Positions 2,356-61,624 of a DNA stretch of 63,679 nt are shown piece by piece. Each line of letters starts with the position of its first letter. Position 1 is the first letter of the stretch. The translations under genes were made by a program, and so were the position numbers. Source of the DNA: Candidatus Methanophagales archaeon (GTDB taxonomy: Archaea > Halobacteriota > Syntropharchaeia > Alkanophagales > Methanospirareceae); assembly GCA_017883965.1 (NCBI GenBank), contig JAFNKG010000006.1:1-63679 (forward strand), given 5' to 3'. The notes beneath the pieces are model-generated. The model did not search any database. It was given only the letters and a program-made list of their open reading frames with translations, and was not told where the DNA came from.

Positions 2356-2931
2356 TTAAAAACATTTAGCCAGAGCCTTAAAATCCTCAACCAACACTTC
2401 TTTCATCTTTGGATTGTAAGTAGCAACTGCTGGATGATACAACGGTATTATTTTTTTAATGCCCCTAATTGCGCTTACAGTAAATTCTTTACCGTGCATC
2501 TTACTTATTTTATCCTTCTTCAACCCGAACTTATCGAAGATATAGGACAACGAGAAGTTTCCAAGTGTAGCAATAACTTCGGGTTTAATGATTTCCAGTT
2601 GTGCATCTAAATAAGAAGTGCAGGCTCTTATCTCGTCCGTTGCTGGATTTCTATTACCCGGCGGTCGGCATTTTAAGACATTGGCTATATAAACTTCGTT
2701 TCTTTGCAACCCCGCGGATTCCAATAACTCATCAAGTACCTTTCCCGCTTTTCCCACAAATGGTCTGCCTTCCTGGTCTTCGTAGTAACCCGGTGCTTCA
2801 CCTACGAACAATATTCTCGCGGATAACGAGCCTTCTCCAACAACGGGATTAGTTCTCGTTTTCCATAACTCGCAGCGCTTACATTCTTTTATTTCCTTTT
2901 CTATGCTTTCCATTTCTTCTTCATAAGGCAT
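2356..2931 (-). CDS. udg: Uracil-DNA glycosylase, family 4
   Basis: CxxC, VGEAPG, GRPFVG, KCRPPGNR and HPA motifs. Confidence 0.95.
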   Translation of the reverse strand: MPYEEEMESIEKEIKECKRCELWKTRTNPVVGEGSLSARILFVGEAPGYYEDQEGRPFVGKAGKVLDELLESAGLQRNEVYIANVLKCRPPGNRNPATDEIRACTSYLDAQLEIIKPEVIATLGNFSLSYIFDKFGLKKDKISKMHGKEFTVSAIRGIKKIIPLYHPAVATYNPKMKEVLVEDFKALAKCF

Positions 2932-3061
2932 TTGAGTAAAACATTTAAAAGAGCTTTATTAAATTGGAAAATTTTTGAATGGAAGATATTAATGATTTCG
3001 TTTTAATATAGAAATATTGACATATCCGCTAAAAATCGAATCAGCATAAACGGGTGAGAGT

Positions 3062-3217
3062 ATGAAAAAGGGAAGATGGGAGAAGTTTTCGGTATGGGTA
3101 AAGGATTATGAAAGAGAACGGCTTAGAGATAAGACCCCGTTAGAGCGAATCGAGATTTTTGAAGCGCTTTATAGAGCGGCATTAACAGTAGTTCCGAAAG
3201 TAGATAAATACCCATGA
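3062..3217 (+). CDS. Small hypothetical protein, antitoxin-like, 51 aa
   Basis: Hand translation MKKGRWEKF...KTPLERIEIFEALY; GGTGA RBS. Confidence 0.45.
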   Translation: MKKGRWEKFSVWVKDYERERLRDKTPLERIEIFEALYRAALTVVPKVDKYP

Positions 3218-3475
3218 AGCTCTGATTGGCTTTTTAGGGTTTTTCAATTTTTTAGGTGAAACAGCTGTAACCTTACGGAATCATATATCAACCTCGAATA
3301 AGCATCGGAAGCCCGTCCTCGTGCAGTATTACAGCTCTGAAGGGAATACCCTTGAGGGGGATCTCTGTCTCCACGATCTTCTCATTTTCCCAGAAATCCT
3401 CTTTGAATTCCGATTCCGGGATGCTTGCCATCTCCTTCTATATTAACATCCAGGATATCAAGATGCTTTTTCTGT

Positions 3476-4210
3476 TTAAATGTCGAAAACTATTTGACGC
3501 TTTATATTGCCCCAAAGTTTCGTTGCCGCTTCTCTCCTTTTCTTTTCAGCATAAATCCCCCGTCCAACTATCGCATAGCTCTCATATGGCAGAACAGTGC
3601 TAAACGCTACAACAATGTCTCCTCCCTGACCCTTACCGATACCAGGGAAAAGAAATTTTGGCTCTTGGATGATTTCTTTTAGTTCCGAGCAATACCTCTT
3701 CATACTTTCTACCTTTGTACCTGGAATAACAAAATATTCAACGCCAAGTCTTGCGGCATCTAAGTAAATTCTTTCGGGTGCATCGTCTGCTATGTAGCCG
3801 CCTTCACTCGCAAGATATCCCCTATGAGTCATCTCTCCCCCGACAATGGGCGTTAAACCAAGTCTCTTGCAACCTTCAACAACGGCCCTTAGAGTTTCTA
3901 TCCCTGATTCTGGAAATGCAATAGCACCATTGATGCCTGCCTTTTTTAATATCTCTAAAATCTTCCCGCCACAGATATCAGGAATATCAGTCCCAAATTT
4001 TTGATGATCATAAATTATTGGAAGATTTGTATACCTCCGAATGACTTCCGTGACTTTGTATATCCCATGTGGAACAACGAGATCCATCCCAATTTTATAC
4101 CCTAGAATAAACTCCAGATCATGCGTTACCTTTATGAGATCTGCTAAATCACTTATATCACCGATGTCACAGGCCACTATGATTCCATGTTTCGAGGAAA
4201 ATAAAGACAT
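3476..4210 (-). CDS. Orotidine-5'-phosphate decarboxylase-like protein (divergent)
   Basis: IIVACD, GYKIG, YDHQKFGTDIPD, PGIG.GQGG, IVGRGIY (OMPDC TIM-barrel motifs). Confidence 0.8.
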   Translation of the reverse strand: MSLFSSKHGIIVACDIGDISDLADLIKVTHDLEFILGYKIGMDLVVPHGIYKVTEVIRRYTNLPIIYDHQKFGTDIPDICGGKILEILKKAGINGAIAFPESGIETLRAVVEGCKRLGLTPIVGGEMTHRGYLASEGGYIADDAPERIYLDAARLGVEYFVIPGTKVESMKRYCSELKEIIQEPKFLFPGIGKGQGGDIVVAFSTVLPYESYAIVGRGIYAEKKRREAATKLWGNIKRQIVFDI

Positions 4211-4211
4211 T

Positions 4212-4940
4212 TCATCCTCCTCCTAATAAACCATTAATAAGCCCCCACATAAAGTTCACGACAACTCCTAATATCACGGTTGCGATAAAACCCAGTATAA
4301 CAGAGCCCAGGTGTATTTCCCCTATGGTTCTATAATATACTTCAAAAGTTTGAGGGAAGTTACCTTGATTTACTTGGTGTACGATTTCTCCTTTCGAGTA
4401 GTCTACATTGCGCGTATCCAGTCCTCTTAGCAGGATTATATCATATAAGCCTTTTTTTTCTTTTTTTCTTAGTGACATGAACCGACGCAAAAACTTATAC
4501 CTGATTCCCTTGAGTTTTGGTAATGTTACCTTAATGCTGATCCATGTGGCTTTCAATTGGGGTTTAAATTTTGATAGTGTCACTTTTTGAAAATCGTGAG
4601 TTAACCCCCGGATAACTCCCCCTCCCTCCTTGTAGGATATTTTTATTATATCGGGAGATGACGATCCCAGTAGTTGTTTTATAGTTTCAAAGTCAAGGAC
4701 GAACTTACTTGAATTTACATCGTATCCATCTGCATCTGACGGAGTTTTGTCATTGACTTTTATCTTAAAATCAGAAAAAGGACATCCAGGCGGTAATATT
4801 ATTGATAGAGATTCATCTGCCGTTTTAATCTTTTTCGAAAAATCAAAAAGTCTAATCGTCCAGTTATGCTGAGCTTCTCCACTACTACTGAGTTCAACGT
4901 TCCATTCAACTTCGGATCTGTATTCGGATGTCAGAAGCAA
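4212..4940 (-). CDS. Hypothetical protein with C-terminal transmembrane helix
   Basis: 242 aa, beta-rich, C-terminal hydrophobic VILGFIATVILGVVVNFMWGLI; 1 bp from next gene. Confidence 0.7.
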   Translation of the reverse strand: MLLTSEYRSEVEWNVELSSSGEAQHNWTIRLFDFSKKIKTADESLSIILPPGCPFSDFKIKVNDKTPSDADGYDVNSSKFVLDFETIKQLLGSSSPDIIKISYKEGGGVIRGLTHDFQKVTLSKFKPQLKATWISIKVTLPKLKGIRYKFLRRFMSLRKKEKKGLYDIILLRGLDTRNVDYSKGEIVHQVNQGNFPQTFEVYYRTIGEIHLGSVILGFIATVILGVVVNFMWGLINGLLGGG

Positions 4941-4958
4941 CCACCCCTATAAGTATAC

Positions 4959-5603
4959 TTAGCGCTTTTTCTGGCTTTTAAGGCTATCACCGACTTCTAA
5001 TTCTTTTGGAAGCGGGTATTCAAAATGAGGTATTATTCCTCTTTTTTCAAATGCATCCCAGTTAAATTCATCTGGTACATAGGTGCAAGCAATAACGTCC
5101 GTTACGATACCCCCATTGTATTCAATTGCATCTACAGCTTTCAATACTTCATCCCCTCCCGTGCAGTGATCTGTAAGAATTACCACATTCGGCTGATTCA
5201 ATCTCCCTTTCCAAGGCTTACCCTCATCACGAGGGATTTTAAGTCTTTCGAACCTAAGTTCTTTACCCAGCCTGACTGGAACATTTGGCAGCCCTGTAAG
5301 AATGGAAATAACTCCTACAAGTCTTATGACTCCGGTTGTTCCACTTTTGTCTTTCTCAATAGGAGAAAGTAGGTCGATTTTTCGTTCTCGAGTGATTTTC
5401 TGAATTTTATCTGCATATATGTTAGCGATTACTTCACATCGGTGCGGATCATTGACTGCTGAATCAAAGTCAGAGTAGTGAGGGCTTTTACCACCTCTTC
5501 TCAAACCGTGCATACTACGCTTAACCACCCCTTCTGCTTTAAAATATTTCTTCGCCCTTTCGTACATCAACTCCATCTCGCTCTCGTTTGCGAGTCTTAT
5601 CAT
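4959..5603 (-). CDS. Type I phosphoribosyltransferase, orotate PRTase-like (divergent)
   Basis: LRRGGKSPHYSDFD resembles the PyrE N-terminus; VVILTDHCTGG is a variant PRPP-binding loop. Confidence 0.7.
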   Translation of the reverse strand: MIRLANESEMELMYERAKKYFKAEGVVKRSMHGLRRGGKSPHYSDFDSAVNDPHRCEVIANIYADKIQKITRERKIDLLSPIEKDKSGTTGVIRLVGVISILTGLPNVPVRLGKELRFERLKIPRDEGKPWKGRLNQPNVVILTDHCTGGDEVLKAVDAIEYNGGIVTDVIACTYVPDEFNWDAFEKRGIIPHFEYPLPKELEVGDSLKSQKKR

Positions 5604-36778: not shown

Positions 36779-36886
36779 AGGTAACCTCTCTGAGACAATT
36801 TTCAAGCACCGTGAAGAGGGGGGATGAGAACTTTTTAGGATTCAGGATAAAACTTATTTGGCAAATTGAGCACCTATCAAAAGAAA

Positions 36887-37150
36887 ATGATATACATTCA
36901 GGAGCTTCTGTGGAATGATTGGAACATTGACCATATTGCCAGGCATAATGTTTCACCACATGAAGTGGAAGAGGTTTGCTATTCTAACCCCTTTGTGACT
37001 AGGGCGAGAAATAAAACTTTAAGGGTTATTGGTCAAACTTATTCCGGACGTTTTCTCGCCATCTTCCTTGCTCCTCGAGGGAAGGGGAGTTATTTTTTGA
37101 TTACGGCGAGAGAGGCTACAGAAGCCGAACGGAGAAGATTTTATAAATAG
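36887..37150 (+). CDS. BrnT-like toxin
   Basis: WNDWNIDHIARHNVSPHEVEE...ITAR. Confidence 0.85.
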   Translation: MIYIQELLWNDWNIDHIARHNVSPHEVEEVCYSNPFVTRARNKTLRVIGQTYSGRFLAIFLAPRGKGSYFLITAREATEAERRRFYK

Positions 37151-37191
37151 AAGATATTGTTATATACAACAAGAGAAGATAGTAAGGTGAA

Positions 37192-37443
37192 ATGGGAAAG
37201 ATACCAAGGTTTAAGAGTGTTGAGGAAGAAGCGGAATTTTGGGATACTCACGATACTGAAGAGTTCACAGATGAATTTGAGCCCGTAGAGGTGAAGTTCG
37301 CTCGCCCTTTGAAGCATAAGTGGATGTTAACCATAGAGCTGGATGAAGAGACCTTTAACCAGGTGAAGAAATTGGCTGAAGGAGCAGGGAAGGAGCCTAA
37401 TGTTCTCATTCGTACGTGGGTTTTGGAGCATCTCAAGAAATAG
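37192..37443 (+). CDS. BrnA/CopG-like antitoxin
   Basis: IPRFKSVEEEAEFWDTHD. Confidence 0.85.
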   Translation: MGKIPRFKSVEEEAEFWDTHDTEEFTDEFEPVEVKFARPLKHKWMLTIELDEETFNQVKKLAEGAGKEPNVLIRTWVLEHLKK

Positions 37444-37621: not shown

Positions 37622-38680
37622 ATGTGGACAGAAAAATACCGACCGAAGAGTTTGGATGAACTCGTAGGGCAAGAAGAGGTAGTGAAACGGATAAAAGGTT
37701 TTGCAAAGGAAAAAACGATACCAAATCTATTGCTCTGGGGTCCAAAAGGTACAGGCAAAACATCTCTGGTTTATGCATTAGCGAAGGAGCTCTATGGTGA
37801 GTTCTACGATGAGAATATTATGCTTATAGAAACATCGGATTTCATGGAACAAAGGAAAAAATGGTTGAAAGAGGATAAAAGATTCAAGTTCTTTTACGAT
37901 GAGCAGAAATCCGCAATAGACATTTTTAAGGACATGATAAGGGAATATGCGGCGTTGTCACCTATAAATGCATCTTTTAAAGTGTTATTTTTCAGTAATG
38001 CCGATTTCCTTCCCGAAAATATCCAGCAGGCTTTGCGAAGGGTTATGGAACGGAGCAGCAAAACGAGCAGATTAATTTTCGCGACCACGAAACCCGCTGG
38101 TGTCATACCCGCTATAAGGTCAAGATGCCTGAACCTTCACTTCACGCATTTAGATAAAAGCGATGCGCTGGAGACATTGATAAGGTCAATAGCAGAGGGG
38201 GAGGGGGTAAAACTTACGGAAGGGGGTTTAAAAACGCTTAAGGAATATGCGAGAGGAGATGCAGGCGCTGCCATTAATATGCTGGAAGCAGCAGCAACAA
38301 CTGCTTCTCCGGCGACAAAACCGATTGATGCGAGCAGAATAGAAGAAGTAGTGCGAAATGCGTTTTTTCAAAGAAAGAAAGCAGAGGAATTGATAGATTC
38401 GGCATTCGCATCCCGGCATAAAGAAGTGAGAGCGGGATTAGAATTTTTGGTAAAAGAAGAGCGGATAGGCGGGAAAGAGATTCTGGTGGAGATACACGAG
38501 GCGTTGCGAAGGAAGATGAAAGCAAAGATGGCGATAGAAGAAGCGCAAAAATTCGCCCGGCTTGTTTTATACGAAGGCGAGGCGGATTTTAAATTATGCA
38601 ATTCTTTAAATACTATGATACAGTTAGAAGAGATGATAACACACTTTTTCTTTTTTAACAAAAAAGAAAACCTGTGCTAA
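37622..38680 (+). CDS. Replication factor C small subunit paralog (RFCS2-like)
   Basis: WTEKYRP, GPKGTGKT, QQALRRVME, SRC; degenerate Walker B (FSNAD). Confidence 0.85.
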   Translation: MWTEKYRPKSLDELVGQEEVVKRIKGFAKEKTIPNLLLWGPKGTGKTSLVYALAKELYGEFYDENIMLIETSDFMEQRKKWLKEDKRFKFFYDEQKSAIDIFKDMIREYAALSPINASFKVLFFSNADFLPENIQQALRRVMERSSKTSRLIFATTKPAGVIPAIRSRCLNLHFTHLDKSDALETLIRSIAEGEGVKLTEGGLKTLKEYARGDAGAAINMLEAAATTASPATKPIDASRIEEVVRNAFFQRKKAEELIDSAFASRHKEVRAGLEFLVKEERIGGKEILVEIHEALRRKMKAKMAIEEAQKFARLVLYEGEADFKLCNSLNTMIQLEEMITHFFFFNKKENLC

Positions 38681-38750
38681 AAGAAAAAAATATGGTAACC
38701 TTTTTAAGGATTTAATAATATCTCTTCACCTGAGAGGTGAAAAGAAAAAA

Positions 38751-39151: not shown

Positions 39152-39251
39152 TACTTGTTTACCGCTGACTGAGCCCGCAGAGAACACAGAGAGTCTGAAA
39201 AAGCATTTATTTCATCTTAGCGCTCTCTGTGATCTCGGCGGTAAACAAATA
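39152..39251. repeat. 100-bp MITE-like element with 14-bp terminal inverted repeats
   Basis: TACTTGTTTACCGC ... GCGGTAAACAAATA. Confidence 0.8.
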
Positions 39252-39509
39252 CGAACGCATAAGTATCAGTCGGCATTATACGCGTTGATGATTGCTGATA
39301 ATTATGGTTTAAAAGTGAATCGCGGGTTTGTGTGTCATACGAGAAGTAATCATTTGGTGAAGGAGGTGAAGCTCAGTGATAAGGATTTTGAACGTGCAAT
39401 CGCTATGGTGAATGCGGTATTGGATATTATTCAAAAAGGTTTTTATCCTGAAGCGACAAAGTATAAGGCAAGGTGCGTAGATTGCACGTACCGGAATATT
39501 TGCGTGTGA
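39252..39509 (+). pseudogene. cas4: Cas4 C-terminal fragment
   Basis: HKYQSALYAL (QxxxY) and C-terminal CVDCTYRNIC; 5' part replaced by the MITE. Confidence 0.8.
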
Positions 39510-39520
39510 GGTGAGAAATA

Positions 39521-39814
39521 ATGGGAACTGAAACCATGCGTATAGAAGTTGAATTGCCAAAAACGTTTTCTTTGACGACAAAGGTTAAAGAAAAGGAAAT
39601 GAACAAATTTATCCGAGAAACATTGGCAGTAGAGCTTTATAGAGAGGGGAAAGTATCATTAGGCAAAGCTGCGGAGATTGCTGGGACAAGAAATAAGTGG
39701 GAAATGTTGATAATACTTGACAAAAGAGGCGTTGCAATAGATTACACATTGGAAGATGCGGAAAAAGACCTTGAAACGTTAAATAAAGTGTTGAAAGAAG
39801 ATGATCGTGAGTAA
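39521..39814 (+). CDS. UPF0175 family antitoxin
   Basis: LAVELYREGKVSLGKAAEIAG. Confidence 0.88.
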   Translation: MGTETMRIEVELPKTFSLTTKVKEKEMNKFIRETLAVELYREGKVSLGKAAEIAGTRNKWEMLIILDKRGVAIDYTLEDAEKDLETLNKVLKEDDRE

Positions 39815-40284
39815 TTCAACGCCACTCATCGCTTTATCAAAAATCGGTAAGTTAGAACTTCTACGCGAGTATTTTGGAGAGTCGCATTCCAAAAGGGGTT
39901 TATGATGAGGTAGTAACGCGAGGGAAGAAGCTGTTTGGCGCAATGGAAGTAAAAAATGCTGAATGGATAAAAGTTGAAGAAGTCAGAAACAAAATCGCTG
40001 TGGATTCGTTGCGCGATTACATAGATCAAGGAGAAGCAGAGGCTATTATATTAGCCAAAGAAAGAGACGCTAAGCTATTACTCATTGATGATTCGGATGG
40101 GCGACAGATAGCGGAGAGACTCACCTTGAAAATCACGGGAACAATTGGTATTTTGTTGCTTGCGGCAACGGACAAGAAGTTAGTGTTTAAGGAGACTCTT
40201 GATGATTTGGTAGCTTGCGGGTTCAGGCTCAGTAAAGAGGAGTATGATAAACTACTGAAGAGAAGTGAGAAGGTTTGTAAATGA
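39801..40284 (+). pseudogene. DUF3368 PIN-domain toxin, frameshifted near 39880
   Basis: MIVSNSTPLIALSKIG from ATG 39801 is out of frame with IPKGVYDEV...GEAEAI...IDD...GTIGIL. Confidence 0.8.
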
Positions 40285-40377
40285 GATATTGGACTCGTTC
40301 AAAATGGTTTTTATCCTGATGCGACTAAGTATAAGGCACGGTGCGTGGATTGCACTTACCGGAATATTTGCGTTTGA
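40277..40377 (+). pseudogene. cas4: Second copy of the cas4 3' end
   Basis: Diverged direct repeat of 39408-39509 (GFYPDATKYKARCVDCTYRNICV*). Confidence 0.8.
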
Positions 40378-40527
40378 AAAGGTGATGGAAGAAGAAATAA
40401 AGAAGCGGATTATTGGAAATGTTGTGAGTGGTTTTATAGCAAAAAGGGAAAATGTGACAAATGTCAGAGGTAAAGAAAAAGGATGAAAACGATGCTCTTC
40501 GATGTGTTCAACGAAAGCAAGTGCCTT

Positions 40528-41051
40528 GTCGCAGAGACTAATCCAATAAAACAAGGATTGAAACTTATTTTTTAGGAGATGATAAAATGGAATCTTTAAA
40601 ATGTAAGTTCGATATTCATAAATGGAAAGAAGATAAAGCGAGTATGGAAGATGTATGTGAGAGATGTAGGATTAGTTATCATAATTATGCAAGAAGAAAT
40701 AGTGGGTCGGTTTGGTTTTGTAGTTTGAGAGTCATACGTTCTTCTTTATCTCGTTTATGGATATGGCTAAGAGGTCCAGATAAGAAATATTCTCCAAAAG
40801 GGACAATGGATCCGTTTTATACTTTAAGTAAATGGACGATTGTTGGAAGAGTTATGTGGAAGCTATTGGTTGTGATTGGTATAGTGTTCGTGGTATTAAG
40901 ATTAATAGAATTAAGCACAGCAATCACACACTGGTAATTATGCCCCAAAAGTGTCTGTGCTTATGAGTAAAAGTCCTTAAATGGATTAGGAGGTGATAAA
41001 AAGAGGGATAATCAGTCGCAGAGGCTAATCCAATAAAACAAGGATTGAAAC
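40528..41051 (+). CRISPR. Two-repeat CRISPR remnant with a 450-bp inter-repeat segment
   Basis: GTCGCAGAG(A/G)CTAATCCAATAAAACAAGGATTGAAAC (37 bp, 1 mismatch) at 40528-40564 and 41015-41051; ATTGAAAC end; follows cas4 and an AT-rich leader-like stretch. Confidence 0.85.
40587..40937 (+). CDS. Hypothetical protein with N-terminal C..H..CxxC motif and C-terminal TM helix, inside the CRISPR inter-repeat segment
   Basis: CKFDIHKW...CERC; LLVVIGIVFVVL; AGGAGATGA RBS. Confidence 0.65.
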   Translation: MESLKCKFDIHKWKEDKASMEDVCERCRISYHNYARRNSGSVWFCSLRVIRSSLSRLWIWLRGPDKKYSPKGTMDPFYTLSKWTIVGRVMWKLLVVIGIVFVVLRLIELSTAITHW

Positions 41052-41135
41052 CTCAAACCTTTTAAAAAAGGTTTGAGCCAAAAAACAATTTCTTTATGAA
41101 AGCGCTTTCTTTCCACGAAAAGATTTTATTAATCG

Positions 41136-41702
41136 CTAATCAACAAACCTTTCTGAAGTTTTACGGTAGAACCGCCATGAGAGGAAATACGCTATTGCTA
41201 CCGCACCAACTCCGCCTACGAACCAGAACGGACCAAAAAATGCAGAAAAGTTATTTGAGAAATGAAGAACCACAGCGGTCAGATAGAACCGCGCAGGTCG
41301 CTTCGTTGCAATACCGTAGGCAGCAATCGAAGTGCTTGCGGCGTGGAAGAAGATCATAGGCAATCTGATAGGTACCGGCGCTTCTAATACAAGTATATAT
41401 ACAAAAAATTCAGAGATGCCAAATCCCAACCCGACCAGAAAACCGAGCGTAAAAATTGATTTCTCTGTTTCTCCATGACGATAGAAGAGCGGATACACTT
41501 TTGCAAATTCCTCGATGAAAGGCGTGAATATCGCAGTCGTGCATAACGTAGCATAGAATATCGGCATCACTGCACATAGCTGGTCTGTGAATGTCCCAAT
41601 AAAGAGAGTAAGAGGAACGCTTATTATAAATCCAGAAATACAAAAGAAAAGATTCTCTTTTAAGTCAGGTCTATGAGGCGTTATTACCTTTTGCATTTTC
41701 AT
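41136..41702 (-). CDS. PrsW-family intramembrane protease
   Basis: PFIEEFAK, GLGFGISE, FHA, LHFSNN. Confidence 0.85.
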   Translation of the reverse strand: MKMQKVITPHRPDLKENLFFCISGFIISVPLTLFIGTFTDQLCAVMPIFYATLCTTAIFTPFIEEFAKVYPLFYRHGETEKSIFTLGFLVGLGFGISEFFVYILVLEAPVPIRLPMIFFHAASTSIAAYGIATKRPARFYLTAVVLHFSNNFSAFFGPFWFVGGVGAVAIAYFLSWRFYRKTSERFVD

Positions 41703-59872: not shown

Positions 59873-61624
59873 TCAAGTTCTTATTCTACGTGATTGCGTA
59901 TAGGCTTCTTCTAATTTCCTTATTCTCTCTTCCACCAGACATTTAGTCACACTCTTCCGGGGAATACCCATCCTCTTTGCAATGTCTGAATCCCTGTAAC
60001 CCCTTGCATGCAAATCTCTTATCTCCATAATCTGTTTTGGGTTCAACCTCACTTCTTCTTCTTCTTCTCTTCTTACTTCTTTCTCCGGATGCGTAATACC
60101 CGTCTTTTGTAAATCCGGATGCGTAATACCCGTCTTTTGTAAACGCAGATGCTCAAAAGCCATATTTCGTGCCATCATCCTCCTCTTTGCAAGGTCTGAC
60201 TCACTCTCTTCTTCATGCAATTCTTCTTTGCTCCGCTGAATCTTTTCTAAGGCATTTTCAGCCGCTTTTCTAACATCCTCATTCTCGACTTTTGATGCTT
60301 GAATGAGAGGTTCAACAGCTTTCTTATCTCCTATCTCTCCAAGAGCCTCGGCAGATCCCTTCTGAACATTCGTATCCTTGTCTCTCAAAGCAGAAATAAG
60401 AGGTTCAACTGCTGGTTTCCCTATCTTAGCAAGGGCTTCTGTCGCACACAACCGAACGTCCTCCTTTCCATCTGTAAAAGCAGAAATGAGAGGTTCAACA
60501 GCTCTTTCATCTCCTATTTTTCCAAGAGCTTCTGCTGCACTTTTCCGAACATCCCCCTTTATATCTTTCAATGCTTGAATGAGAGGTTCAACAGCTCTTT
60601 CATCTCCTATCTCTCCAAGAGCCTCTGCCGAACACCACCGAACACTCTCCTCCTCATCTTTCAATGCAGGAATGAGAGGTTCAACAGCTCTTTTATCTCC
60701 TATCTTTATAAGTGCCTCTGTCACACTCCACTGAATATCTAAATTTTCATCTATTAAAGCAGAAATAAGAGATTCAACAGCTCTTGCATCTCTTATCTCT
60801 CCAAGAGCCCATGCCGCACCCAACCGAACATTCTCCTCCTCATCATCCATGGCATGAATAAGAGGTTCAACTGCTGGTTCTCCTATCTTACCAAGAGCCT
60901 CTGCCGCACTCTTCCGAACATTACTCTTTTTATCTTTCAAAGTTTGAATAAGAGGATCAATTGCTTTTGTACTTCCTATCTTACCAAGAGCCTCTGCCGC
61001 ACTCTCCCGAACATCCTCCTCCTCCTCTTTCAACGTTTGAATAAGAGGATCAATTGCTCGTGTATCTCCGATCTTACCAAGAGCCTCTGCCGCACACATC
61101 CGAACATTCCAATCCTTATCCTTCAACGCCAGAATTAGGGGGTGTTCCTTACCCCTCGCCTCCGCCTCTTTTATAATTTCCTCTCTTTCCTTTTCTTCTT
61201 TCCTCTCCTCCACCACCTCCAGGATATATTGTCCCAGCGTATCGAATAGAACATTTGGATTGCCAACCTTCTTGGTGATATATCTGCTCGCCCCTTTATT
61301 TAATGCCTCCATCGCCACATTCTCGGCTCCTTTCCCGGTGAGGATGATAAAAGGAATGTCGTTTCCTTTCTTCCTCAGCGCCTCCAGAAATTCGAGCCCA
61401 CTCATCCCCTGCATCTTGTAATCAGCAACAATAACGTCAAAATTTTCCTCTTCCAATATTTCCAATGCCTGCTCCGCGGATAATACCGGTGTGATTTTGA
61501 AACAATTATAGCCCTTATTTTGTAGATACAATCTAGTTATCTCGAGCACTCTCTTCTCATCATCCACATGCAAAACCCGTATCAGTCTTGACTTCGAATC
61601 CTGATGCTGGGAATCATTTGCCAT
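59873..61624 (-). CDS. REC domain + HEAT/PBS-lyase repeat + C-terminal HTH protein
   Basis: VLHVDDE..ADYKMQ; about 10 VRxxAAEALGKIG repeats; RDSDIAKRMGI. Confidence 0.88.
   Translation of the reverse strand: MANDSQHQDSKSRLIRVLHVDDEKRVLEITRLYLQNKGYNCFKITPVLSAEQALEILEEENFDVIVADYKMQGMSGLEFLEALRKKGNDIPFIILTGKGAENVAMEALNKGASRYITKKVGNPNVLFDTLGQYILEVVEERKEEKEREEIIKEAEARGKEHPLILALKDKDWNVRMCAAEALGKIGDTRAIDPLIQTLKEEEEDVRESAAEALGKIGSTKAIDPLIQTLKDKKSNVRKSAAEALGKIGEPAVEPLIHAMDDEEENVRLGAAWALGEIRDARAVESLISALIDENLDIQWSVTEALIKIGDKRAVEPLIPALKDEEESVRWCSAEALGEIGDERAVEPLIQALKDIKGDVRKSAAEALGKIGDERAVEPLISAFTDGKEDVRLCATEALAKIGKPAVEPLISALRDKDTNVQKGSAEALGEIGDKKAVEPLIQASKVENEDVRKAAENALEKIQRSKEELHEEESESDLAKRRMMARNMAFEHLRLQKTGITHPDLQKTGITHPEKEVRREEEEEVRLNPKQIMEIRDLHARGYRDSDIAKRMGIPRKSVTKCLVEERIRKLEEAYTQSRRIRT

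Follow-up and report, generated by a model that had tools for sequence, protein, structure and literature searches.

A complete gene between two type I-B CRISPR repeats in a decayed locus of a Methanophagales archaeon

Clustered regularly interspaced short palindromic repeat (CRISPR) arrays are regarded as stores of short guides and not of genes, and the length of the spacers between their repeats is held tight by an integrase ruler. Single genes that travel with repeats are known from integrons, whose cassettes are promoterless-looking single genes of about 0.5 kb with recombination-competent repeats and a fixed promoter upstream. Among the described systems closest to the locus considered here, the prophage PhiAP1.1 integrates into the CRISPR repeats of Streptococcus pyogenes, where integration and excision can delete or transfer spacers, as Varble et al. 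describe (10.1101/2020.10.09.333658), and the creA element of CreTA and CrePA is described as PsiR, a 30-bp PsiS, and a second PsiR beside a toxin gene whose promoter PsiS matches (10.1101/2024.01.05.574328). Moreover, recombination-driven evolution of arrays has been described for normal spacers within species (PMC4524480). The present work concerns a stretch of 63,679 nucleotides from a Candidatus Methanophagales archaeon (contig JAFNKG010000006.1 of assembly GCA_017883965.1, positions 1 to 63,679 of the forward strand; hereafter the window), in which two 37-nt CRISPR repeats enclose a complete gene for a 116-aa protein, here called ORF116 (ORF, open reading frame). The locus is read, with slightly better than even confidence, as an over-length, spacer-like capture followed by transfer of the resulting unit between arrays through their repeats.

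The two direct repeats differ at one position and stand 450 bp apart (Table 1), as had been described in an earlier reading of the DNA made from its letters alone (hereafter the sequence-only reading), and scans of both the window and its assembly (G000; 2.48 Mb, 136 contigs, 92.7% complete) bear this out. At up to three mismatches, the repeat has two copies in the window, against 0 in 100 shuffles, and the whole assembly holds the same two copies and no others. These are genuine type I-B CRISPR repeats of the Cas6b type, and the 37-mer belongs to bona fide arrays, as had been supposed: of 41 related genomes searched, 13 (G000 included) contain its 27-nt core, in arrays that repeat about every 73 nt. 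The related genome G004 carries cas1-cas2-cas4-cas8b (Pfam Cas_TM1802)-cas7-cas5-cas3-cas6b, a leader, and 94 repeat copies, all identical to repeat 2, and the same-genus genome G001 has 26 copies of a one-base variant. The interval between the window's repeats lies far outside the normal spacing of such arrays. Among 252 unique inter-repeat intervals from 13 loci of nine related genomes, 250 measure 34-39 nt, the remaining two (113 and 154 nt) consist of the trailer hairpin followed by a half repeat, and none is gene-sized, further spacers of that size being what the sequence-only reading had proposed to look for. The insert is nevertheless bounded by full repeats, starting directly after the ...ATTGAAAC end of repeat 1 and stopping directly before the GTCGCAG... 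start of repeat 2. Set beside the features by which a CRISPR array is recognised, the locus thus has 450 nt where 34-39 nt is usual, two repeats, a cas4 fragment and no homology to the G004 leader where at least three repeats would adjoin a leader and functional cas genes, and a repeat 2 that equals the repeat of a cas-adjacent array. As regards acquisition by Cas1-Cas2(-Cas4), the exact full-repeat boundaries are those of repeat duplication, and the insert exceeds the normal spacer length set by the integrase ruler about 12 times. A 2334-nt Logan contig from run X1, made by a different assembler, covers 39163-41496 with no difference at an even depth of 71 and spans both junctions, so the repeat-ORF-repeat structure is not mis-joined; X1 is probably the window's source sample and therefore provides a second assembler, not an independent sample.

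The 450 bp are one contiguous fragment of foreign type, accessory or mobile-element-like, that holds a complete gene followed by the ribosome-binding site (RBS) and first codons of the next one. Contig C161 of G078, a genome of genus g14, encodes an ORF116 homologue with 75-82% aa and 88% nt identity, and its homology to the insert is contiguous over about 40575-41004, that is, some 430 of the 450 nt, comprising a first Shine–Dalgarno (SD) motif, the ORF, the 3' untranslated region (UTR), and a second SD motif. When these alignments were compared with shuffles, the score of the 3' UTR was reached by 1 of 2000 and the 5' score by 7 of 2000. No repeat remnants were found in the flanks of the G078 copy, where shuffles reach the repeat-alignment score in 390 of 1000 cases upstream and 662 of 1000 downstream. 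The insert has a commoner variant, known from metagenome contigs (L035 and those of runs X2, X3, and X4), in which ATG GAT AAT CA stands at the right distance behind the second SD motif and leads straight into repeat 2; therefore, the fragment ends 10 nt into the next gene. A metagenome scan for the insert returned a single locus, L035, and a scan of genome contigs returned the G078 record only. When 207 unique spacers, taken from an array on contig C64 of G000 and from some of the related arrays, were compared with the 450 bp, L035, and the G078 locus, no match exceeded 15 nt.

ORF116 lies on the repeat strand (formerly the CRISPR RNA, crRNA, strand), with GGAG 8 nt upstream of its ATG, and the complete 116-aa frame, its RBS, the Cys/His N-terminus, and the C-terminal hydrophobic helix all stand as first read. 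The N-terminal C-x4-H...C-x2-C motif (C6, H11, C24, C27) is conserved in relatives: D9, H11, E21, C24, R26, C27, and other residues are invariant in nine family members, and C6 is invariant in an alignment of the four closest sequences. An AlphaFold model based on the nine-sequence alignment reaches a predicted local distance difference test (pLDDT) value of 81 (59 with four sequences) and contains a beta-hairpin at 13-24, a long helix at 31-62, and a hydrophobic C-terminal helix at 82-115; the last is predicted to be transmembrane, so that the product would be a tail-anchored membrane protein. The ratio of nonsynonymous to synonymous substitution rates (dN/dS) against the G078 copy is 0.38 over 96 codons, and ORF116 is thus a real coding sequence. 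A word search found three relatives, and a profile search of 1.84 billion representatives found seven clusters; the distribution is sporadic, with two carriers in 79 genomes of the class and two in 401 phylum-sample genomes, G000 counted in both. The match to the Pfam family DUF1660 (PF07874), at 22.0 bits, lies just above the cut-off of 21.4 and extends over residues 4-34 alone (profile positions 3-34 of 63); in six of eight relatives it is sub-threshold (13.8-20 bits); phrog_2670 is matched at E 3e-5 to 6.5e-5 by three of the four proteins tested. The only probable Foldseek match is a Lactococcus phage protein (40 columns, probability 0.95, E 0.44), and in BFVD and PDB Foldseek found nothing like the model at E <= 0.001. 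A profile of the family had 0 matches among PDB sequences at E <= 1, PADLOC gave 0 for ORF116 and two relatives, and an ESM Atlas search with ORF116 gave nothing above 0.83. The protein would accordingly be assignable only as a zinc-ribbon-like domain plus a transmembrane helix, distantly like phage DUF1660 proteins; an accessory or mobile origin agrees with its phage-type N-terminus and its scattered occurrence.

The same unit occurs elsewhere. L035, a Joint Genome Institute (JGI) metagenome contig of 1144 nt, contains the same 450 bp and repeat 2 with six differences in 504 nt, and the insert is 98-99% identical in L035 and in contigs from runs X2, X3, and X4, which measure 504-519 nt, hold the repeat-ORF116-repeat unit, and end inside repeats. 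These runs are sediment or cold-seep metagenomes from at least two named studies, X4 being, like run X20, labelled RNA-Seq and judged probably DNA. Runs X5-X20, which contain 0.24-0.42 of the sampled words, contribute nothing to the conclusions. Upstream of its unit, L035 shows the 3' end of purL and then 135 nt without a relative in 66 family genomes, and the N-terminal extension of protein P0001, encoded on another contig, reads through the same upstream junction. Downstream, L035 has a different trailer hairpin, of the kind that follows the arrays of G023 and G019, and a 134-nt miniature inverted-repeat transposable element (MITE; L035:840-973) with up to about 300 candidate copies per genome in family f1; its downstream flank is 93-95% identical to genus-g14 genomes. 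An empty site for L035 is found in G075:C151, where the purL stop and 22 nt are followed by the downstream flank of L035, and G023:C147 carries a full I-B locus in which cas6b, a leader, and a 16-repeat array precede an L035-type trailer and the same downstream flank. Because its flanks match both this empty site and this full locus, L035 is a second, independent I-B relic, in another genus, with only the unit left. Conserved genes of the two genera differ by 14-27% at the DNA level, against about 99% identity of the unit, which therefore moved laterally in recent time. CRISPR repeats are reported to overlap across lineages of anaerobic methanotrophic archaea of the ANME-1 type (PMC9894754), an overlap that would permit recombination through repeats. 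Related repeats were also seen in two IMG/VR contigs: a solitary intergenic 37-nt repeat (L051:1247-1283) in a 42-kb tailed-virus-like contig with a terminase and an ERF-like recombinase, and an array of two repeats and one spacer at one end of a 13.8-kb viral contig (L052:1-110); therefore, mobile elements of this community carry such repeats. No repeat-only allele or circle junction was found among the contigs, but contigs drop rare variants, and the result is hence uninformative; contig joints that skip 451-461 nt come from other arrays, where they represent ordinary repeat-38-nt-repeat pieces.

The locus around the insert is decayed, a two-repeat remnant of a type I-B array that has lost its upstream cas genes and its effector genes. 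The remaining cas4 fragment begins exactly at the right end of a MITE-like element of about 105 nt, which has dozens of copies at 82-89% identity in G001, G004, and G019 and coincides with a peak of X1 depth (1224 vs 71). It is 96% identical to the 3' end of the G004 cas4, and the full 205-aa cas4 of G019:C28 aligns to it from residue ~121. The sequence-only reading had placed the repeats downstream of cas4 and a leader-like stretch; the position was right, but cas4 is present as a C-terminal fragment only, and the leader-like label of the stretch needs correction. Its first 68 nt, including 40384-40445, correspond to the intergenic DNA downstream of cas4 in the intact G004 and G019 loci, no relative was found for 40446-40527, and at E <= 1e-3 no part of 40378-40527 matches the true leader, as known from the intact array of G004. 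A TATA-like box, TTTTATAG, lies at ~40431 and, judged by its motif, may be a promoter. At this point in G004, the effector genes (cas8b-cas7-cas5-cas3-cas6b) and the leader fill the next 7 kb, all of which is missing in the window. The arrays G001:C67 and G004:C36 end in sequence some 90% like repeat 2 and the 45 nt or so after it, and repeat 2 is therefore the terminal repeat before the family's trailer hairpin. Moreover, the same-genus contig G001:C26 offers an empty site, joining window position 39252 straight to 41124; the 1.87-kb segment absent from it comprises the cas4 fragment, a toxin-antitoxin cassette, the repeats, ORF116, and the trailer, and ends at 41123. The flanks of the window are chromosomal, being 94-96% identical to a sister genome.

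Neither Cas6b nor Cas8b(TM1802) was found in the 92.7%-complete G000. Its other CRISPR-Cas system is of a different kind, with cas6-cas8-cas7-cas5-cas3-cas4 on contig C106 and cas1-cas2 plus a 30-nt-repeat array on C64; only its cas3 resembles a G004 protein (24% identical), and its Cas6, the sole one in G000, has no tblastn similarity to the G004 Cas6b at E <= 1e-3. The proposal of the sequence-only reading that the array serves as a platform for gene capture and expression, with Cas6 excising the captured gene, is thus unsupported in G000, where Cas6b and Cas8b are lacking, the locus is a deletion remnant, and ordinary spacers prevail in related arrays.

Between cas4 and the repeats lies a cassette of its own. 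The duplicated 80 nt of the cas4 3' end bracket the UPF0175/PIN-like pair (PADLOC candidate PDC-S70), in which the antitoxin-like partner is intact and the PIN-like gene carries a 1-nt deletion relative to the 161-aa gene of G019, its ATG at 39801 being out of frame with a 136-aa ORF at 39874-40284. The same layout of cas4 duplication and UPF0175/PIN-like pair is present in G019:C28 and G003:C81 and absent in G004. In L016 (G019:C28), this arrangement at the cas4 3' end lies within 778-2270, the G004 cas4 stands without one, and in G000:C106:20744-22626 two full cas4 copies flank a 249-aa nucleotidyltransferase-like ORF. Cassettes bracketed by cas4 duplications look like a recurrent way to load accessory genes into cas operons.

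Table 1. Features of the decayed CRISPR-Cas locus and its insert, in window coordinates
Feature	Position	Strand	Basis
MITE-like multi-copy element, terminal inverted repeats TTTGTTTACCGCTGA / TCGGCGGTAAACAAA	39148..39255		inverted repeats, copies in relatives
cas4 C-terminal fragment, N-terminal half missing	39243..39509	+	Pfam Cas_Cas4 positions 76-159 of 160
UPF0175-family antitoxin-like gene, 97 aa	39521..39814	+	Pfam PF03683 E 7e-22; PADLOC PDC-S70
DUF3368/PIN-like toxin-type gene, frameshifted	39801..40284	+	Pfam, PADLOC, comparison with G019
Second copy of last 80 nt of cas4	40298..40377	+	91% to 39430-39509; repeat finding, translation
Upstream stretch	40378..40527	+	comparison with intact loci
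CRISPR repeat 1 (GTCGCAGAGACTAATCCAATAAAACAAGGATTGAAAC)	40528..40564	+	repeat finding, window scan, copies in relatives' arrays
450-bp insert: 5' UTR with SD, ORF116, 3' UTR, second SD, next-gene start	40565..41014	+	homology to G078:C161
SD-type motif 1 (TTAGGAGATGATAAAA), RBS of ORF116	40572..40587	+	motif counts
ORF116, 116 aa, putative small zinc-ribbon-like membrane protein	40587..40937	+	intact ORF; weak DUF1660 / phrog_2670
SD-type motif 2 (TTAGGAGGTGATAAAA), RBS of truncated next gene	40986..41001	+	motif counts, G078, L035
CRISPR repeat 2	41015..41051	+	terminal repeat; identical to G004/G016 array repeat
Array trailer	41052..41123	+	11-bp-stem hairpin at 41052-41077; likeness to relatives' trailers

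Several further observations concern the surroundings and the genome. The ends of arrays in the family show modules of a trailer hairpin, about 110-160 nt, and a half repeat (AAAACAAGGATTGAAAC), sometimes duplicated, as in L003 (G017:C74) at 220-377, L062 (G005:C324), and L031 (G023:C147) at 2560-2930, and G003:C1 and G011:C89 contain isolated repeats, either full or half; these modules and isolated repeats suggest frequent decay of arrays in the family. Upstream in the window, a BrnT-like gene (below the Pfam cut-off) and a CopG-antitoxin gene form a pair at 36866-37443, adjoining the gene for the replication factor C (RFC) small subunit, and together with the PDC-S70 pair they make the region rich in toxin-antitoxin modules. 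A hairpin-like multi-copy element of about 50 nt follows the RFC gene (38641-38689), and a k-mer scan flags two clusters of short-period direct repeats with a spacing of 50-100 nt at 60484-60984. In the G000:C64 array (2587-4960), the leader-proximal spacer matches contig C104 (20485-20520) at 36 of 36 positions and another spacer matches C104 (292-329), C44, C47, and C82 at 94-97%; matches within the bin mean either self-targeting or binned mobile-element contigs. C-terminal domains of mcrA stand at two contig ends, G000:C10:8-388 and C97:8-388, which points to two copies or alleles in the bin, and G000 is taken to be an ANME-type archaeon on the strength of mcrA and the named habitats.

Exact repeat boundaries, a contiguous foreign-type fragment, the presence of the unit in two arrays of two genera, and the decay of both loci are the observations for which an explanation is sought. 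The exact full-repeat bounds point to spacer-integrase chemistry or to recombination through the repeat, since transposition or random insertion would not produce them, and over-length capture is favoured because an integrated large element would need to be deleted back to about 10 nt of the repeat. The most likely origin would be a single integration of the 450 bp by the Cas1-Cas2(-Cas4) adaptation machinery. In this form, the gene-sized spacer of the sequence-only reading survives as the preferred origin, although at about 12 times the normal length. Once formed, the unit probably moved between the arrays of the two genera by recombination in their shared repeats, a mechanism to which the pattern of identity points. 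Large one-sided deletions from the cas side may then have left the trailer-proximal unit as the last survivor; in the window, the decay comprises loss of the upstream cas genes at the MITE, deletion of the effector genes and leader, and the frameshift in the PIN-like gene. Any expression of ORF116 would probably be as an ordinary mRNA from the relic promoter, on the former crRNA strand, ending at the trailer hairpin without release by Cas6.

Several points weigh against capture followed by transfer. To our knowledge, integration of a prespacer of about 12 times the normal length has not been demonstrated, and a limited literature search found no description of a gene-sized spacer, which is not proof that none is in print. 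The donor is also elusive: no relative appeared in IMG/VR by protein pattern or by DNA pattern, tblastn against 50,697 phage and 72,556 plasmid records found no relative of ORF116, a protospacer adjacent motif (PAM) has no donor in which to be read, and G078, whose 5' homology ends about 10 nt from repeat 1, is at 88% nt identity not the true donor. Of the upstream repeat in L035 only the 3' 17 nt remain, a state more readily explained by a deletion or an illegitimate junction than by a clean exchange through repeats. The ORF differences between the window and L035 are four nonsynonymous and one synonymous, so no constraint is visible at this short distance. Moreover, only two flanking contexts are known, subject to an ascertainment bias in that short-read graphs break in repeats and units in long arrays lose their flanks. 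Finally, a neutral history leaves unexplained why two loci that decayed independently should both retain this unit alone.

The sequence-only reading had offered another origin, in which a gene cassette was inserted into an existing 36-bp spacer through microhomology at an RBS. It rested on a 16-nt direct repeat around ORF116 (40572-40587 and 40986-41001), which is indeed there at 15 of 16 positions and is seldom expected by chance (1 of 300 simulations with a Markov-1 model), and on the arithmetic that removal of one 414-bp period leaves exactly 36 bp (TTATTTT+TTAGGAGGTGATAAAA+AGAGGGATAATCA). However, G000 contains 13 instances of GGAG[AG]TGATAAAA where its composition predicts 0.2, the two copies lie at homologous positions in the repeat-less G078 locus, and the second is followed by an ATG in the commoner variant, so that both are SD-type translation-start motifs and not an insertion scar. 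Only about 9 nt on the 5' side and 10 nt on the 3' side fall outside the contiguous fragment, too little for a spacer, and no empty 36-nt allele was seen in the contigs of four runs, though contigs drop rare variants. The contiguity that the same reading had named as fatal to insertion, and had thought to look for in a virus, was found in a chromosomal contig (G078:C161), and insertion into a spacer is now very improbable. An assembly chimera that joined ORF116 to the repeats is less credible still. Although metagenome assemblies often break or mis-join at CRISPR repeats, the X1 contig crosses both junctions at even depth, which disposes of the misassembly that had been feared, both junctions recur in the unrelated contig L035 and in contigs of three further runs, and the N-terminal extension of P0001 crosses the same junction.

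More weight, if still doubtful, is given to a repeat-bearing mobile element that integrated at an array repeat, the 450 bp being its remainder, or to a minimal 487-bp circle of repeat plus gene that hops between arrays. Such an origin fits the exact repeat-insert-repeat bounds, the presence of nearly the same unit (about 99% identical) in one array of each of two genera, and the related repeats in the 42-kb and 13.8-kb IMG/VR contigs; it has a precedent in PhiAP1.1 of Streptococcus pyogenes as described (10.1101/2020.10.09.333658), and repeats are reported as common to ANME-1 lineages (PMC9894754). However, the repeats enclose ORF116 only, with no integrase or element genes, the insert is collinear with the G078 neighbourhood almost to both repeats, so that deletion to about 10 nt of the repeat is required, ORF116 has no relative in the IMG/VR, phage, or plasmid collections, and no circle or excision junction was found among the contigs, to which that search was confined. 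Retention of the unit for a function is unlikely: ORF116 might be a defence or exclusion protein made from the array promoter, or the unit a selfish 'array eraser' acting by double crossover at the first and last repeats, followed by cas decay. In both decayed I-B loci the unit is all that is left, beside the trailer, with empty sites in sister genomes; ORF116 is intact beside disrupted PIN-like and cas4 genes, follows a TATA-like box on the crRNA strand, and is present in several seep and sediment runs. Against this, there are two contexts only, plus assembly bias, a unit next to the trailer would be spared in any case by one-sided deletions from the cas side, the near-identical copies show a dN/dS of about 1, and ORF116 has no PADLOC or known-function match. 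There is an equally small chance that repeat-ORF116-repeat is a horizontally mobile cassette that uses CRISPR repeats as recombination sites and array transcription for expression, erasing spacers by replacement of whole arrays; an array-replacing cassette would explain why two I-B loci that decayed independently, in two genera, have kept this unit and no other.

For the present, the repeat-ORF116-repeat unit is a rare oddity and not yet a proven gene-capture system. A complete gene exactly between genuine repeats, conserved at about 99% and shared across genera, means that adaptation or repeat recombination can load gene-sized DNA into arrays and pass it from one lineage to another. Should such events recur, the arrays of uncultured methane-cycling archaea would transfer genes by a route so far unrecognised, or would be targeted by selfish elements that erase them; if this one is unique, it is a natural example of ruler failure and of CRISPR-Cas decay, with MITE-associated truncation, cassette insertions at cas4, and loss of the effector. 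The interest of the unit would rise with more contexts or more kinds of captured genes.

Compared with a canonical type I-B repeat-spacer-repeat, the locus has identical repeats, ending in ATTGAAAC, in the same orientation to cas4 and trailer, with exact boundaries and a trailer hairpin; it departs from it in its 450-nt gene-holding spacer, its mere two repeats, and the missing leader, adaptation, effector, and cas6b genes. The PhiAP1.1 prophage is reportedly about 40 kb in size. It resembles the present case in that foreign DNA lies between CRISPR repeats inside an array, and the spacer deletion described for it would fit an array reduced to one unit; however, it is described as a temperate phage with an integrase and an anti-CRISPR in a bacterial type II-A array, whereas here 450 bp with one gene and no integrase stand in an archaeal I-B locus. 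Virus-borne mini-CRISPR arrays and solitary repeat units share the minimal array or single repeat outside full loci, but those described in the parts of the accounts drawn on here (PMC6858448, PMC10651486) have normal-length spacers or none and belong to viral genomes, whereas the present unit is chromosomal and encloses a gene. CreTA and CrePA, as far as described in the account used (10.1101/2024.01.05.574328), likewise combine a small, possibly phage-derived gene with degenerate CRISPR repeats in a type I cas locus and share the idea of a CRISPR locus harbouring a toxin-type gene. Unlike in those systems, the gene here lies between the repeats, and the locus has no short-spaced repeat pair, only copies 450 nt apart. 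The analogy with integron cassettes, drawn by the sequence-only reading, may hold for a single gene bounded by repeats downstream of a fixed promoter; the locus differs in having one kind of gene and no cassette array (0 gene-sized among the 252 other intervals), and no recombinase gene was found among the ORFs and Pfam matches of 39253-41123. Closest to the spread proposed here is recombination-driven array evolution as described in PMC4524480, with which it has in common the exchange of units through repeats, the unit here being gene-sized and exchanged between genera.

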